From positions 77,501 through 141,500 of IMG/VR virus record IMGVR_UViG_3300049020_000031: a stretch of DNA of 64,000 bases. One strand, 5' to 3'. The position numbers and the translations under genes are program-made. This DNA comes from a virus. Below are positions 2,809-48,718 of this stretch, one piece after another. The notes under the pieces were generated by a model, which saw nothing but the letters and a program-made list of their open reading frames with translations, ran no database searches and was not told the origin of the DNA. Each line of letters begins with the position of its first letter. The first letter of the stretch is position 1.

Positions 2809-3279
2809 ATGCAAGACAAAACACCAGCGACTCCATCAAATATCAAATCGCTTTCCGAACAATACAAGGAAATGTGTCAAGATGATATGAAACGAATGGC
2901 TCAGATCAGAGATCCATATACTCTTGGCACTATTATTGGCAATGGTTCACATAATAAGTTGCCAACCCAGAGCGGGATGTCCAATTCTTCTATTGGAACC
3001 AACGTCACGTCTGGTTCCCCTAAGCTTCAGGGAACTATCAAATCATACACAAATAGTCAGAATGGAATTTCGTGGTCTGATAGCGGCACATATCTTTCTG
3101 AATCAGAACTCACCCAAGTGAAAAAGGATCTGGCTGCAATCAAGAAAAGACTGATGATTCTTGAACCCAATCTACAGAAGATGGAAAAGTTCCAAGCCCT
3201 CAAGGATGCATACGAGCATTATCTATGCATGGAGAAGCTGTGTGATGAGGATATGCCAGGCGCACAAGGTGGCACCTGA
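2809..3279 (+). CDS. Hypothetical phage protein with C-terminal coiled coil
   Basis: AAGGGG SD before MQDKTP; C-terminal LMILEPN...ALKDAYEHY. Confidence 0.65.
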   Translation: MQDKTPATPSNIKSLSEQYKEMCQDDMKRMAQIRDPYTLGTIIGNGSHNKLPTQSGMSNSSIGTNVTSGSPKLQGTIKSYTNSQNGISWSDSGTYLSESELTQVKKDLAAIKKRLMILEPNLQKMEKFQALKDAYEHYLCMEKLCDEDMPGAQGGT

Positions 3280-23979: not shown

Positions 23980-24062
23980 ATTTTCACTCCTTTAAAGTTC
24001 ATTCTAACATGGCATAAGGTGCCCATTACGAGCACCAAATGAATAATTGGGGTCAATTCATG

Positions 24063-24092
24063 TCAAGTTCCTCAAAATCTACCTGGAGATTC
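24063..24092. repeat. Dispersed 30-bp repeat, copy 2
   Basis: tcaagttcctcaaaatctacctggagattc. Confidence 0.85.
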
Positions 24093-24166
24093 AGGGGAGC
24101 TTGCGACCAATCCCATTGAATATTGCTTGTAGGAACCTGGAACGAAGTGACAAATCCCATCATATC

Positions 24167-24223
24167 TTCGTGAAGAAGTTCGTGAAGAAGTTCGTGAAGA
24201 AGTTCGTGAAGAAGTTCGTGAAG
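24167..24223. repeat. Tandem repeat of 12-bp unit TTCGTGAAGAAG, about 4.75 copies
   Basis: Directly visible perfect repeats. Confidence 0.95.
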
Positions 24224-24229
24224 GATTGT

Positions 24230-24562
24230 CTATTTCTTCTCATTCATCCATAGCCACAATGACTCATGTCGAACGATCAGATCACGTAACAGTAATTCCA
24301 CAGCATCATCAGGATTCTTAAACAGAACCAATCTGGACACGGAGGGATGAGACTTGAACAAAATCTTACTCTGCCAATCCAGGAGATTCTCCTTTATCAA
24401 TTCCTTGATAGTAGAGGATTCACCATTACTGCTATTCACCAGGAATACGTATTTGAAGTCTGGGTTAATCGTCTGAATATCCCCCAGACGATCCACTGTC
24501 TCCATATAGAAATCAGGGTTGTTAGTAACATACCGGATTAGATCATCAATGGTTTCCATGTT
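24230..24562 (-). CDS. Hypothetical protein (tandem paralogue triplet)
   Basis: TI..LI.Y...NPDF..VFL....VLFKNPDDAVELLL; start approximate. Confidence 0.6.
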   Translation of the reverse strand, partial: NMETIDDLIRYVTNNPDFYMETVDRLGDIQTINPDFKYVFLVNSSNGESSTIKELIKENLLDWQSKILFKSHPSVSRLVLFKNPDDAVELLLRDLIVRHESLWLWMNEKK

Positions 24563-24911
24563 GTTCCTTAACCCAAGTCTCCAAAACTTGATACGGTTCG
24601 ATGGCATCTAGGAGGATCAGATCCAAGGCGTCATCATCTTCCCTTACCAATACCGCCCTACAAATCTCTTGGTATTTGGACAATCGGATTCGGTCCATCC
24701 ACCGATCACCTAGATGCTCTATCAATTGATCTCGACTCTTAGCGATCGACGCCTTATCAGTTTTTCCCTTGATCAGGAAGATTTTCGGAAAGCCCTCGTT
24801 TTCATTCATCATCTCAATCAATTTCTGATTGAGAGAATGGGCAGGCTGCAACCCAGATGATGGATTCGTAGTCCAGTCGATTGCTTGTTGAATAGTTGCC
24901 ATGATCAACAC
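24546..24911 (-). CDS. Hypothetical protein (tandem paralogue triplet)
   Basis: NEGFPKIFLIK...HLGDRW.DRIRL...VLVREDDDALDLILL. Confidence 0.65.
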   Translation of the reverse strand: MLIMATIQQAIDWTTNPSSGLQPAHSLNQKLIEMMNENEGFPKIFLIKGKTDKASIAKSRDQLIEHLGDRWMDRIRLSKYQEICRAVLVREDDDALDLILLDAIEPYQVLETWVKEQHGNH

Positions 24912-31622: not shown

Positions 31623-32267
31623 TCAAACTGGATCCACGTAGCCCCTGAACGTCAACGAAATTCTGGGTCCACAAACATGCAGGGATGATTTGGGGATGCG
31701 ATGGTGGTGAGTGTCCTGCATCCCGGGATACATCAAACACAGACTGCCACTTTCCAATGAAACCTTGTCAACCGTGTTGTGAGTTGATGCAAGGGAGTTC
31801 ATTGTCTCACCCAGATTAATATTTCCCTGAATGCCAGTCAGACCATCCAAAACACTCCTCGCAGCGAAGTTTGGATTCTTTCTAAACCAGATTTCACGAG
31901 TGGCGCCCAGACTCACAATTGCGATTGGTCGCTTGTCATCCATTTCCGGACTGTCATCAGCGTGCCATCCCAAGTGGTCAGTGCCGTCCTGATAACCATT
32001 CAAGAAGCACGCCTCGAACGCGCACCCCATTTCATTTTCCAGGAGTGATTTGATGTTCAGAATATCTGCGTGATATGGCTGAACACCGTATTCCCTCACT
32101 CCAGCACCTTTGCCATAAGTGTAGGGGACTTTGACATCATTGCAGTAATATTCACGCCTGGGAGTGTTGCCTACACGAACCCAGGCTAGTTCTTCCCAGA
32201 GTCGATTGAAAACTTCCTGATGATTCACCAACCAGTTTGGCGTGTATTTTACAGGCAAGTCACCCAT
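31623..32267 (-). CDS. AlkB-like 2OG-Fe(II) dioxygenase
   Basis: FLNGY.DG.DHLGWHAD, IAIVSLGATR, H.IPK, RISLTFR. Confidence 0.9.
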   Translation of the reverse strand: MGDLPVKYTPNWLVNHQEVFNRLWEELAWVRVGNTPRREYYCNDVKVPYTYGKGAGVREYGVQPYHADILNIKSLLENEMGCAFEACFLNGYQDGTDHLGWHADDSPEMDDKRPIAIVSLGATREIWFRKNPNFAARSVLDGLTGIQGNINLGETMNSLASTHNTVDKVSLESGSLCLMYPGMQDTHHHRIPKSSLHVCGPRISLTFRGYVDPV

Positions 32268-32276
32268 ACGATTCTC

Positions 32277-32951
32277 CTAGAAATTGTCCCCGAAATGTTT
32301 CCTAACAGTCGAGGAATAAAAGTTACCGAACAGATTCATTGTAGCATGAAACCCAGCTATCAGGAGATCAGTCACTAGATATATCAGGAGAGCAACTGGC
32401 CACCAAACAACCACAAACGCAAGCAAGATCTTGTGGTCTTTTATTGATGGCACCAGCATTTCAACAAGATGTTTCCAATCATTTGGCCGACCTTGATATG
32501 AAACTTTAAACTCTTTCACCAATGAGTCATGCAACTGACGCAGATGATAATGGTATTCAGCGTTGCTGCCAGTTTTGAAATAATCCAAATCAAATTGCTT
32601 TTCCAACAAGTAATTGTTCTGAACCATCAGAAATTTGTTTCTAAAGTCGATGATGAGATTGTTCCAATAATATTTGGAACAAGCCATACCTATGATGAAA
32701 TAAAGTAAGTACCCACCAATGGCTTCCCAGCCATTGAAGGCGTAAAAGAATCTGATTCCGCCACCAACGAACCATAGACCTATTGAACTCCAAATCAGAG
32801 TCCAGAACAAAGGTAAGTTTTGATGATCCTCTTTAACATGACTGATCATGGTGAGGACTGGCCCGACCACCAACAGGGCGATTCCTAGCAGGAATCCGAA
32901 CCAAAATTCACGAAGTAGTTCAGTTCCAATAAAGAACAAAGTATCCATCAC
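32277..32951 (-). CDS. Hypothetical membrane protein (paralogue of 21402-22181)
   Basis: N-terminal TMs, YF.IG..CS.YYW, C-terminal VVWWP. Confidence 0.65.
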   Translation of the reverse strand: MMDTLFFIGTELLREFWFGFLLGIALLVVGPVLTMISHVKEDHQNLPLFWTLIWSSIGLWFVGGGIRFFYAFNGWEAIGGYLLYFIIGMACSKYYWNNLIIDFRNKFLMVQNNYLLEKQFDLDYFKTGSNAEYHYHLRQLHDSLVKEFKVSYQGRPNDWKHLVEMLVPSIKDHKILLAFVVVWWPVALLIYLVTDLLIAGFHATMNLFGNFYSSTVRKHFGDNF

Positions 32952-33770: not shown

Positions 33771-34117
33771 TATTGTGGTGGCACCAAGGTCAAGCTAGTT
33801 CCTGATATCAAGTTCAGGAAGCAATCAATGGTATTGTTGGGAAAGTGATATCTAGCCAGTTCATATTGATGCTCGATAGTTTGGGCGAATTTGTCAACTA
33901 CTGCTGAGATGAATGCCACGTCTTCAAACAGGTCGTCGTCAACCATGATGTCGATCTTCGATGCAGCCAACTCACCCGCATCGATCCCAATCAGTTTTTC
34001 TAACCGAGTCTTCAACATGATTCGAGTGAGACCGGAACTAGTGTGATGCAATGGGCCATTTGCAGAATCGAGTTGCTGCAGAATGATCTCTTTGTATTGG
34101 GCGTAGATATCAGACAT
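33770..34117 (-). CDS. Hypothetical protein
   Basis: AAGGA SD, coupled stop/start. Confidence 0.6.
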   Translation of the reverse strand: MSDIYAQYKEIILQQLDSANGPLHHTSSGLTRIMLKTRLEKLIGIDAGELAASKIDIMVDDDLFEDVAFISAVVDKFAQTIEHQYELARYHFPNNTIDCFLNLISGTSLTLVPPQ

Positions 34118-34346
34118 CGGTTTTCCTTTGACTCTCAGTATAACGCCTAAACATTGCCACCTTTCGAAGTCTGGGATAAAGAACTAGAAATCCACTCATG
34201 CCACCATTCACAAACAGATACGAGGCATAAAGATTCCATTTGCCTTGAAAGGTCACGTATTGATACAGCCCAAACAATGACCAAACCCAAACAGAAACGC
34301 CCAGAGCGATCCAGAATCTAATTCTGACGTTTCTGAGCGTGTTCAT
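34110..34346 (-). CDS. Small membrane protein
   Basis: Start MNTLRN just downstream of the tRNA; two TM segments. Confidence 0.55.
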   Translation of the reverse strand: MNTLRNVRIRFWIALGVSVWVWSLFGLYQYVTFQGKWNLYASYLFVNGGMSGFLVLYPRLRKVAMFRRYTESQRKTDV

Positions 34347-34348
34347 AT

Positions 34349-34423
34349 TGGTGACTCCTAGGGGATTCGAACCCCTGCTTCCGGTTTTAGAGACCGCCAC
34401 TCTGGCCGCTGAGTTAAGGAGTC
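34349..34423 (-). tRNA. Amber suppressor tRNA (anticodon CUA), CCA encoded
   Basis: Cloverleaf GACTCCT-TA-ACTC AGCGGCCA GAGT-G-GCGGT CTCTAAA ACCGG-AAGC-AGGGG TTCGAAT CCCCT-AGGAGTC-A-CCA; anticodon at 34388-34390. Confidence 0.92.
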
Positions 34424-34430
34424 AAATCAT

Positions 34431-34652
34431 TTAATTGAGATCAGCATCCTTGCGAAACTGCTCAATACACCATTCGTATGGATCACCATCCCGAGCCTTG
34501 GCTACACCGTAGGGCATTTCCCCATTACCAGTGTAGTAATCGTACAGCCATGTCAAAAATGCTGGGGTGGGATCATGGCCCAAAATCAATTCCTGAATGT
34601 CATCACGGAACAGATGACAGATCTTGTTGAATTCTGGGTTGTTCTTAATCAT
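34431..34652 (-). CDS. Hypothetical phage protein
   Basis: LYDYY...GEMPYGVAKARDGDPYEW motif, which I recall as recurring in large phages. Confidence 0.65.
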   Translation of the reverse strand: MIKNNPEFNKICHLFRDDIQELILGHDPTPAFLTWLYDYYTGNGEMPYGVAKARDGDPYEWCIEQFRKDADLN

Positions 34653-36851: not shown

Positions 36852-37123
36852 TTGTTCACCTCACCGACAATACGTCCACCCATAAGAGCAATGATCATCG
36901 CTTCCTCCTTGGTTTCCACGTAGAAGAAGTGAAACGACAAGTTGACTCCGGGTGATGGATTGGCATCACTGTATCCCAACCAATTACCTGGCGTTGTTTT
37001 ACCATTCGACCACTTGATGCTCTTGCCGCCAAGTTCATAGAATTGACGCATCATTTGTTCTCGCGAGGACCAGAATGATTCCAGGGAGTCGTCATACTGC
37101 AAGCAAACTCTGATTACTGGCAT
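36848..37123 (-). CDS. Hypothetical protein (C-terminal motif family)
   Basis: FYVETKEEAMIIALMGG. Confidence 0.6.
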   Translation of the reverse strand: MPVIRVCLQYDDSLESFWSSREQMMRQFYELGGKSIKWSNGKTTPGNWLGYSDANPSPGVNLSFHFFYVETKEEAMIIALMGGRIVGEVNK

Positions 37124-37542
37124 AGTGAGAACCTCTTGGTGAATGCGCGAACTTCATCCTTGCGAGCTGGGCCGATACCCAGAGCCGTGATGATTGGATC
37201 TCCGGTGAAATGCGGAGGCATGATGTGATGCTCATCGATAATCAATGAACATGGGATGCCAGCTTCCTTCGCAGCCTCGTAGGCTTTCAGGATGGCGTCT
37301 TGGTTCTTAGCTTTGAGGCAAACCTTAGTTCCAATTCCATCGCGCTGGTAGAACTGGTTGATTTCCGGCCTCTTGAGCCCTGAGTCGATGAATGAATTGA
37401 GATAAGCGTGCCCAGCTTGACTGGCGAGTTTGCCAGGGGGCATTGACAAGTCTTCGCGAATGATCGCGTACAGACGATACGGGTCTTCCTCTGATGGGGA
37501 CCGCGAGTGATTGATGTATTGGGAAACCTATTGCTTGTTCAT
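37114..37542 (-). CDS. pth2: Peptidyl-tRNA hydrolase type 2 (Pth2), with in-frame TAG at codon 5 (37528-37530)
   Basis: RLYAIIREDLSMPPGKLASQAGHA, KVCLKA and TALGIGP motifs. GAAAGG SD, then ATG AAC AAG CAA TAG GTT..., in frame with the rest (37542-37449 = 93 nt). Confidence 0.85.
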
Positions 37543-37681
37543 GATATACCTTTCAGTTAGTTGTTGAGGTTCATCCTCGGAATCTATTTAAGCACCGTTT
37601 CATTTTGATCGCAAGAACAATTTTGAATTGTTCGATATGGTCTTTATACTAAGAGTTGGTTATACTAATCAAGTCTTTTAT

Positions 37682-40631: not shown

Positions 40632-41027
40632 TTAGACCTTGGTCTTGTGCAGTTGTGCGGCCGAGAGCTTGAAACGATCACCAGTTACCGTCTTCACAAT
40701 ATAGGGATATTCACGAGCGCGAGAATTGTAACCAATCACAGTGACCACGCCCAGTCGATTGTCTTTGAACATTGCATTGGGTGCAATATCGTCAAAACGA
40801 CCGTACACATTCAGTGCGGCGGCAAACTTGATATCACTAACGCTTTCACCTTCTGGGGCTGTTTCTTTGCTGACGATTTCCAGCTTGAACGTTCCGGAAC
40901 TACCATCACGCGCAAACGAAGCATTTCCAGCTTCAATCGTCACGCCGTGCTTTTGTGCAATCGCCTCCAGAGCAGCATTGATTTCCAGACGAACAGCTTT
41001 GATAAAGTCGCGATCGATTGTGGTCAT
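40632..41027 (-). CDS. Hypothetical protein
   Basis: Start MTTIDR after AGGG SD; GYNSRAREYP motif. Confidence 0.7.
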   Translation of the reverse strand: MTTIDRDFIKAVRLEINAALEAIAQKHGVTIEAGNASFARDGSSGTFKLEIVSKETAPEGESVSDIKFAAALNVYGRFDDIAPNAMFKDNRLGVVTVIGYNSRAREYPYIVKTVTGDRFKLSAAQLHKTKV

Positions 41028-41062
41028 TTTGTGTTCCCTAAGTTGTTTGTTGCGATGTATCA

Positions 41063-41093
41063 AGTATAACACCAGATGAACGCATTCGATCAA
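41063..41093 (-). promoter_or_regulatory. Promoter-like element with TTCATCTGG
   Basis: TTGATC...TATACT with a longer spacer. Confidence 0.45.
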
Positions 41094-41107
41094 CTATTTG
41101 AAAAGAA

Positions 41108-41347
41108 TCACAACATTTTTGTAACCACTTTGACGTTGGGTGGTGTATCGTGATCCACTTGACACTTTATACAATAAAGACAACCAGATACCGCACGCCT
41201 ACGGAGCTCAGGTATAGGTTCCCCACAGTCAAGGCAGAAGGGCCGGGAAGGGCCCTTTCTGATCATAAGTCTAGCGAGGCCTATCCCGTTATCCACAATT
41301 GCTTGTGCGTTCTCTGCCTCTTCATCCGGTTTGCCCATTCCACTCAT
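41108..41347 (-). CDS. DksA/TraR C4-type zinc finger protein
   Basis: CLDCGEPIPELRRRAVSGCLYCIKCQ. Confidence 0.88.
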   Translation of the reverse strand: MSGMGKPDEEAENAQAIVDNGIGLARLMIRKGPSRPFCLDCGEPIPELRRRAVSGCLYCIKCQVDHDTPPNVKVVTKML

Positions 41348-48249: not shown

Positions 48250-48277
48250 ATTATACTTCATTTGGTGAAAAACGCAA
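48250..48277 (-). promoter_or_regulatory. Sigma70-like promoter with TTCA-CCAAA-TGAA spacer
   Basis: TTGCGT-16-TATAAT. Confidence 0.65.
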
Positions 48278-48296
48278 CAAGTATTTGAATCCAATG

Positions 48297-48323
48297 AAAA
48301 AGAGTGGCTTGCGCCACTCTTTT
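48297..48323 (-). terminator. Terminator of the tmRNA gene
   Basis: aaaaagagtggc-ttgc-gccactctttt. Confidence 0.8.
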
Positions 48324-48324
48324 A

Positions 48325-48682
48325 AGGTCATGTTGTTACACAGTTGACCGAACTATGAATCAGGCCGCGATGGCTTGATTGTAGGAATTATCGTTTGCAG
48401 ATAAAAGTTTCGCATCCTTAACGACGTCGCATGTCGTGTTGTCAAGCTCCGATATCTCGCCGAGTCGATAGCCAGTTCACCCCCATCACAAGCGCTCTAG
48501 CGTTCCAAACTGCCTCAGCGAGAGTTGAACTCGCCCGCGTCTACATCGCAACAACTTTGACCCCGTAAGCGCCGGAATCGAACCGACGTGCTGGAGCGCT
48601 TGTGGTGGAGGTGGGGAGAGTCGAACTCCCGTGTTCGCCGCCTTCACTTTACCATCTGGTGGGTGATCCCACCTACAACAAT
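48325..48682 (-). ncRNA. ssrA: Two-piece (circularly permuted) tmRNA, tag (A)ANDNSYNQAIAA
   Basis: Acceptor piece ends GGGAG TTCGACT CTCCC CACCTCC A CCA (48603). Coding piece starts GGGGGTGAACTGGCTATCGAC (48484), giving G3.U70. Tag ORF GCA AAC GAT AAT...GCG GCC TGA at 48360-48398. Outer ends approximate. Confidence 0.9.
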
Positions 48683-48689
48683 TTCAATT

Positions 48690-48718
48690 AGTATAACACC
48701 ATGATATTTACACCGCAA
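48690..48718 (-). promoter_or_regulatory. Sigma70-like promoter of tmRNA
   Basis: TTGCGG-17-TATACT. Confidence 0.65.

Follow-up and report, generated by a model that had tools for sequence, protein, structure and literature searches.

Which UAG codon does a viral tRNA with the anticodon CUA decode, when the genome that encodes it uses the standard genetic code? The question is raised by the window analysed here, a stretch of 64,000 nt corresponding to bases 77501-141500 of a 141.5-kb IMG/VR virus record (G000) that CheckV estimates to be ~33% complete. Its GC content is 45%, and small genes are densely packed along it. ARAGORN called one tRNA in the window, a 75-nt gene on the minus strand (34349-34423) with the anticodon CTA (34388..34390, minus strand, reading UAG), and this is also the only tRNA called in the whole record. 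A first-pass annotation, which gave no strand, had proposed it as a genuine amber-suppressor-type tRNA in a genome that is not TAG-recoded, and the ARAGORN call, the Rfam match and the analysis of the code all bear this out.

Scored against the Rfam tRNA family (RF00005), the sequence reaches 63.8 bits, well above the gathering score of 29 (E 4e-14, model positions 1-71), and the D- and T-loop elements of the family are present. The core is that of a class I tRNA, with U8, A14, G18G19, a T-loop TTCGAAT, and a variable loop of 4 nt. The acceptor stem begins with G1-C72, A2-U71, and C3-G70, followed by the discriminator A73 and an encoded CCA. In the Rfam alignment, the sole non-standard pair is 27:43, a G27.G43 mismatch at the top of an anticodon stem of five positions (GCGGU/ACCGG). 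This stem carries a 7-nt loop, C-U-CUA-A-A, in which U33 and a purine, A37, flank CUA at positions 34-36, as in an amber suppressor. The complete cloverleaf, the CCA, the anticodon loop, the mismatch, the acceptor pairs and the discriminator had all been described correctly beforehand. Minimum-free-energy folding alone misses the cloverleaf (z = -1.2), which is recovered by the covariance model. The label tRNA-Pyl attached by ARAGORN reflects the anticodon only. A tRNA-Pyl has a short D-loop lacking G18G19, a 6-bp anticodon stem, and a 3-nt variable loop, and this identity is ruled out here by G18G19, TTCGAAT, the five-position stem, and the 4-nt variable loop.

The tRNA lies between two small genes on the same strand. 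A 73-codon ORF (orf73, 34431..34652, minus strand) stops 7 nt ahead of it, with a sigma-70-like promoter match at 34688-34660, and a homologue of orf73 likewise directly precedes the tRNA-CUA of the complete relative G001. On the other side, a 78-codon ORF without family match (34110..34346, minus strand; ATG 34346-34344) begins 2 nt past the CCA. The Shine-Dalgarno (SD) sequence of this ORF, AGGAG (34359-34355), is the 3' acceptor strand of the tRNA itself, so the two are probably co-transcribed. On any one transcript, maturation of the tRNA 3' end and translation of the 78-codon ORF should be mutually exclusive over this segment (34344-34359).

To establish the genetic code, we compared the record with two complete relatives that have terminal repeats, G001 (424.5 kb, with a tRNA-CUA) and G004 (523.8 kb, with a tRNA-UCA). 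A greedy ORF cover of the 141.5-kb record gives a coding density of 0.905 under code 11, against 0.904 if TAG is treated as sense, and the stops used are 105 TGA, 106 TAA, and 25 TAG. In G001 and G004, the density is ~0.90 under code 11 in every 20-kb bin, and gains upon readthrough are confined to the tRNA arrays, where spurious ORFs lengthen. The standard code is used throughout the fragment and the two complete relatives. A code-15 (stop-recoded) phage is rejected, as the first pass had anticipated, by the lack of any density gain in the record, of any regional gain in G001 or G004, and of any other interrupted conserved gene. The genes with stops at 1446, 19522, 24230, and 32277 do end in TAG, as listed there. 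TAG terminates 10.5-11.6% of the genes in the record, G001, and G004, and TGA terminates 39% of those in G004 despite its tRNA-UCA; these genomes therefore do not avoid the cognate stop.

The two complete relatives encode 56-59 tRNAs each, in large arrays, and the suppressor stands apart from these, beside a tmRNA and a gene for a Pth2-like protein. In G004 (L062-L088; complete, 524 kb), no tRNA-Trp(CCA) is found among the 59 tRNAs called by ARAGORN, and its tRNA-UCA might also serve UGG. The tmRNA of the window is circularly permuted, in two pieces (48269-48695, minus strand; ARAGORN and Rfam), with the tag ANDNSYNQAIAA, and a permuted tmRNA also occurs in G001, G002, G003, and G004, within ~8-12 kb of the hydrolase gene. 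No class II (PF00587) or CysRS (PF01406) synthetase was detected in the 141.5-kb record, and a megablast query with the 10-kb surroundings of the tRNA matched no GenBank phage.

The candidate for the decoded codon lies in the window's own Pth2-like gene (37542-37114, minus strand), located 2.7 kb upstream of the tRNA on the same strand and in the same conserved gene block. The PTH2 family PF01981 matches two genes in the 141.5-kb record, of which one, outside the window, is normally started. At 1.3 kb from the latter there is a weak tRNA match of 134 nt and 29.2 bits (L002:1466-1634, which is 2927-3095 of the record and also outside the window), for which ARAGORN gives no call; it overlaps a partial Y RNA-like (YrlA) match of 33.5 bits, below the gathering score of that family. 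In the gene within the window (37114-37479, minus strand), the domain begins upstream of the first ATG, GTG or TTG. Its score of 77.4 bits against a cut-off of 23 places it in the family, and the product is by this match a predicted PTH2-type peptidyl-tRNA hydrolase. The catalytic-type residues K33 and D98 are invariant across 18 homologues. The gene has a single SD-ATG, composed of a ribosome-binding site GAAAGG (37554-37549), a 6-nt spacer, and the ATG at 37542-37540 (together 37540..37554, minus strand), and this start lies four codons upstream of an in-frame TAG. The leader thus reads SD-ATG-AAC-AAG-CAA-TAG, with the TAG as codon 5 (37528..37530, minus strand), the proposed site of decoding by the tRNA-CUA. 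The gene body that follows (37114..37527, minus strand; PF01981, PHROG 1866) comprises 137 codons and a stop. The first ATG, GTG or TTG after the TAG is a TTG at 37449, already downstream of the start of the PF01981 match, and relatives of the gene have a similarly placed SD-ATG.

The stretch directly past the stop bears the mark of translation. Over codons 13-28 past the TAG, pairwise comparison of the window with L005, L007, and L008 gives 42 synonymous and 13 non-synonymous differences, and the nucleotide differences are distributed as 11/10/53 over codon positions 1/2/3. This bias shows that the stretch is translated in that frame, with initiation upstream. The stop is not an assembly error, since a contig from an independent freshwater metagenome spans 37414-37564, TAG leader included, with 0 differences; the tRNA itself is covered by the probable source sample only. 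Upstream of the leader, a promoter-like sequence (TTCTTGC ... TGCTTAAATA; 37585..37620, minus strand) occurs in one copy in the window for an expectation of 0.07, and similar motifs are found upstream in L005 and Phosso; judged from sequence, it is a putative promoter.

If this TAG is what the tRNA reads, stop and anticodon should change together, and they do. We collected 93 distinct homologues from IMG/VR, GenBank phages, GTDB genomes, and JGI metagenomes; a first scan of genome contigs with a strict pattern had found nothing. Within the IMG/VR set, TAG is accompanied by CUA in the window, L005, and L009, and TGA by UCA in L007 and L008. Across the whole sample, 60 of the 93 homologues have an in-frame TAG leader, and 42 of these 60 have a tRNA-CUA in the locus or record. 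A TGA leader is present in three, all with a tRNA-UCA, and a TAA leader in two (L098 and L304), one of them with a tRNA-UUA. In L098, this tRNA is directly upstream, and the leader has two in-frame TAA, each after TTC-ACG (L098:9806-10000); no suppressor tRNA is found within the 12 kb of L304. At no locus among the 93 homologues is a non-matching suppressor the sole one present. Those in-frame loci that lack a suppressor (19/65) are mostly short contigs or fragments, with a median locus of 5.2 kb. The earlier proposal that the pth2 gene is the target of the tRNA is thereby strengthened, leader stop and anticodon covarying across dozens of genomes.

The physical association of the pair is also close. 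The suppressor is located at most 300 nt upstream of the leader stop in 41 loci, forming a two-gene cassette, and most homologues are such tRNA and hydrolase cassettes without a tmRNA. In the 141.5-kb record, G001, and G004, the order hydrolase gene-orf83-orf191-orf94-orf73-tRNA is collinear, and the GNAT acetyltransferase gene between tRNA and hydrolase gene is not conserved in G001 or G004. On a quick maximum-likelihood protein tree, TGA leaders have two origins: Atu_ph07 (TGA/UCA) groups with Phosso (TAG/CUA) as its sister (99% support), and L007 and L008 (TGA/UCA) are nested in the clade of the window. TAA leaders appear twice on the same tree. Independent co-switches are few in number: two led to TGA, and one or two led to TAA. 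Two loci show further peculiarities. In L091 (857-1225), one TAG in the leader is followed by a second inside the conserved domain, in a column that is mostly Glu or Asp, and in L009 (10001-10380) the hydrolase gene shifts frame mid-gene, through either an indel error or pseudogenization.

Among cultured phages, a matched pair of stop and suppressor is found in Atu_ph07, Phosso, and RsoM2USA. The Pth2-like gene of Atu_ph07, whose product is 48% identical to that of the window, reads SD-ATG, five codons, and TGA, matching a tRNA-UCA. The annotated coding sequence begins at an internal ATG in Atu_ph07 and Phosso; in RsoM2USA, the gene lacks an annotation. In Phosso (L120:2361-5532), the tRNA-CUA, annotated as 'tRNA-Undet', sits between genes annotated as a cysteinyl-tRNA synthetase and a short serine-tRNA synthetase, and a phage enzyme might charge it. 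XacN1 encodes two tRNA-CUA genes and a PTH2 that is normally started only, with no gated gene, which indicates that not every phage tRNA-CUA serves a Pth2-like gene.

We consider it likely that the tRNA-CUA is a dedicated phage-encoded amber suppressor, selected for reading the UAG that forms codon 5 of the Pth2-like gene. This reading starts from the anatomy of the tRNA, the standard code, the covariation, and the coding constraint past the stop; from these we infer expression, charging, readthrough, and the purpose of the gate. Ribosomes would initiate at the SD-ATG of the four-codon leader and arrive at the UAG, where charged tRNA-CUA would compete with release factor 1. If the tRNA wins, translation would continue in frame into the hydrolase; if it loses, a tetrapeptide would be released and no enzyme made. 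The pair would thus act as a translational AND-gate or dosage valve, the output of which requires both the mRNA and an active suppressor. An efficient suppressor would be costly, and ordinary TAG stops are not avoided, so suppression must be modest, context-dependent or brief; at ordinary TAG terminators it is probably weak or tolerated. Some evidence runs counter to a dedicated suppressor: in L007 and L008, a GTG directly follows the TGA, and re-initiation at this GTG could make a suppressor dispensable. The tRNA-CUA genes of XacN1, the 19 in-frame loci that lack a suppressor, the small number of independent co-switches, and the two thirds of the genome that lie outside the record also count against it.

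A dedicated suppressor should have no other obvious target, and we found none. A tblastn search of all ORFs among the 141.5-kb record, G001, and G004 revealed no other conserved gene interrupted by a stop; the 71 alignments that suggested interrupted genes are antisense frames, in which TAG lies opposite Q (CTA/CTG reversed), or upstream read-ins. The scan recommended in the first pass, for an SD-ATG and short ORF ending in a stop before a long start-less open frame, returned the hydrolase gene as the only convincing case. A frame at 40632-41183, whose codon 30 is TAG, was rejected as a further gated gene, its real start being a later ATG. The first-pass annotation had also suggested that TAG-ending genes gain C-terminal extensions, an idea that found no support: the next in-frame stop follows after a median of 12 codons for TAG and of 10 and 12 for TAA or TGA, none of the TAG-gene extensions is conserved in relatives, and neither selected extensions nor back-up stops are seen. 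The adjacent same-frame ORFs 32277-32951, encoding a membrane protein, and 31623-32267, whose product we take from its sequence to be a putative AlkB-like 2OG oxygenase, are not a fusion joined through the TAG, as homologues of the second protein never cross it and align only from a few residues past its own ATG. Directly past the TAG that ends the gene 24230-24607, the same frame (24053-24229, minus strand) reads a repeat, HELL four times, which corresponds to a short tandem DNA array in intergenic space.

These searches weigh most on the strongest of the alternatives, according to which the tRNA is a general suppressor with a genome-wide role, either in recoding late genes that lie in the remaining two thirds of the genome or in deliberate readthrough of host or phage TAG terminators, and the Pth2-like gene is merely tied to it. 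It draws on the observation that suppressor tRNAs of phages are known chiefly from those with a recoded TAG or TGA (bioRxiv 10.1101/2021.08.26.457843). The sequence at hand is moreover about a third (~33%) of the genome, XacN1 retains its tRNA-CUA genes in the absence of a gated gene, and no more than 12 kb separate the permuted tmRNA from the pair in the window, G001, G003, and G004. One form of the tie would be a hydrolase and tmRNA that scale with readthrough damage. Against such a role stand the even code 11 density of G001 and G004, with no readthrough gain outside the tRNA arrays, the absence of another interrupted conserved gene in the tblastn and leader-pattern screens, TAG genes devoid of selected extensions or back-up stops, and the prevalence of cassettes lacking a tmRNA. 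We therefore regard a general suppressor as improbable.

A second class of homologues stands in contrast to the in-frame type. In 28 of the 93, the leader ORF is in the -1 frame relative to the hydrolase frame (+1-type leader). They are mostly on large contigs, several of which are records of Mesorhizobium, Sphingomonas, Pararhizobium, and Psychromonas (L202:9985-10020; L203, L206, L207, L295, L301, L307, L315, and L351-L368). In the 21 of 28 loci resolved by script, as a stop followed by C, the leader consists of an SD-ATG, 2-19 codons, and a stop that may be TAG, TGA or TAA with C always next, and the hydrolase frame resumes one base later. Suppressor tRNAs are found in 0/28 loci of this type and in 46/65 of the in-frame type (Fisher p = 2e-11, on rows that are not independent). 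Suppressors accompany solely the arrangement that needs them. The +1-type leader looks like a +1 shift at a weak stop in the manner of prfB. Near this class, some unusual tRNAs were noted. L006 and L290, the closest relatives of the window hydrolase (up to 80% identity), read CAG-TAG-G with the hydrolase frame at +1, and an AGG codon overlaps the leader TAG (L006, 9940-9990, and L290). L006 also encodes a tRNA, called as Arg(CCU), whose loop CGCCUAA has an unusual G33 (L006:16829-16906). In the Psychromonas locus L203, where the leader ends in TAA-C, a peculiar tRNA, called as Asn(AUU), precedes the gene by ~115 nt (L203:9753-9830). The Arg(CCU)-type and Asn(AUU)-type tRNAs may match the +1 codon or a four-base codon.

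This distribution bears on a less probable alternative still, in which hydrolase synthesis does not require the tRNA, ribosomes re-initiating after the mini-ORF or using a non-canonical start codon, and the role of the tRNA is unrelated, for example as a decoy or spare against host tRNA-cleaving defences. Besides the GTG after the TGA in L007 and L008, it can point to the ATG, GTG or TTG with which the first beta strand opens in L207, L203, L093, and L094, and to the large tRNA sets that jumbo phages have for other reasons. The window, L005, Atu_ph07, Phosso, and RsoM2USA nonetheless offer no ATG, GTG or TTG between the stop and the domain, and L008 has CTT at the candidate start position. An unrelated role would also leave unexplained why the anticodon changes with the leader stop among TAG, TGA, and TAA, and why suppressors are absent at +1-type leaders, so that we hold this alternative to be quite unlikely. 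Mere decay, in which the tRNA gene has suffered a change of anticodon and the hydrolase gene is a pseudogene with a nonsense codon, would take one base change from CCA to CUA or from a sense codon to TAG, and finds a parallel in the frameshift within the L009 hydrolase gene, but is already very unlikely given the intact cloverleaf at 63.8 bits, the recurrence of the arrangement in 65 distinct in-frame homologues down to ~40% identity, the purifying selection downstream of the stop, the invariance of K33 and D98, and the identical TAG-leader region (37414-37564) in an independent sample.

The origin of the tRNA and the amino acid it inserts were considered next to its target. Its anticodon arm, GCGGUCU-CUA-AAACCGG, is one base apart, outside the anticodon, from that of the tRNA-Trp of G001 and Atu_ph07, GCGGUCU-CCA-AAACCG(U/C), in line with the Trp-like arm seen in the first pass, yet Cys(GCA) and Ser(UGA) arms are equally close. 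Trp (CCA) is the sole anticodon one step from both CUA and UCA. The acceptor does not follow that of Trp: the window tRNA has A73, compared to G73 in all 6 phage tRNA-Trp genes examined, and its highest overall similarities, of 72-74%, are shared among tRNAs for Val, Asp, Trp, Met, and Arg. The suppressors of different genomes are polyphyletic, one in L090 being class II and Ser-like. As the stop lies in a short, non-conserved leader and the suppressors have several origins, the inserted residue is probably irrelevant, and any amino acid would serve; the earlier proposal of Lys or Gln rests on E. coli rules. A mismatch at 27:43 is found in 7/25 suppressors and 34/282 other tRNAs, a difference that is not significant (p = 0.058; rows not independent). 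Unpaired 27:43 has been reported to raise readthrough by CUA suppressors in bacteria (2026 paper; PMC13092985), and the idea that it aids readthrough here is suggestive only.

Taking the in-frame and +1-type leaders together, a broader and more tentative reading is possible, namely a circuit that senses failed termination. The frequency with which the leader stop escapes release factors would determine how much hydrolase is made, with bacteria appearing to gate by a +1 shift at 'stop-C' and phages by their own cognate suppressor, co-evolving through three stops; the hydrolase would then handle the consequences of readthrough or of stalling at stops, or act back on the suppressor. If true, this circuit would represent a new class of translational control, centred on a private tRNA.

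The pairing of suppressor and target has consequences beyond this locus. The suppressor tRNAs of standard-code jumbo phages, hitherto reported as puzzles, gain a concrete and testable function, and the dedicated suppressor would be a natural example of gene-specific control by nonsense suppression. Gene annotation is corrected in cultured phages, where the Pth2-like gene is truncated in Atu_ph07 and Phosso and missing in RsoM2USA. The virus of the window is a giant soil phage with a normal code and one UAG-reading tRNA; for annotators, a CUA or UCA tRNA alone does not signify an alternative genetic code. Co-evolving pairs of stop and anticodon could also be used as orthogonal switches.

Several known systems resemble parts of this arrangement. 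In the autoregulation of prfB, the gene of release factor 2, an early in-frame UGA followed by C is passed by a +1 frameshift. As in prfB, an early in-frame stop would tie the output of a translation-factor gene to poor termination, and the 28 homologues with +1-type leaders are formally similar to it. In contrast to prfB, the gate in the window would be passed in frame by a co-encoded cognate tRNA, and the product is not a release factor. Stop-recoded phages, among them crAss-like and Lak phages in which TAG is read as Gln ('code 15') or TGA as Trp ('code 4'), encode suppressor tRNAs (bioRxiv 10.1101/2021.08.26.457843, PMC9523058). The virus of the window shares with them a tRNA of its own whose anticodon is complementary to a stop, in a host of standard code. 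Whereas recoded phages have hundreds of in-frame stops in late genes and a density that rises under the alternative code, here the code is standard and a single stop lies in the short leader of one gene.

XacN1 and Atu_ph07 are phages of the same kind with the same kind of tRNA, Atu_ph07 being a relative. For XacN1, target genes of its two tRNA-CUA could not be identified (PMC5852040), and for Atu_ph07 no specific target was named, the authors pointing only to the abundance of UGA stops (PMC6102473). Unlike these studies, we name a target, the Pth2-like gene with a TGA leader in Atu_ph07; XacN1 has no gated gene. A full-text search of the literature returned no account in which a suppressor tRNA is coupled to a hydrolase gene gated by a stop. 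Lastly, the Trp-like anticodon arm recalls E. coli su7 (supU), a tRNA-Trp turned into an amber suppressor by a change from CCA to CUA, and the G27.G43 mismatch recalls suppressors with an unpaired 27:43 (PMC13092985). Unlike su7 and laboratory mutants, the tRNA of the window combines A73 with G1-C72, where the phage tRNA-Trp compared has G73, and it is a natural gene conserved in a virus.
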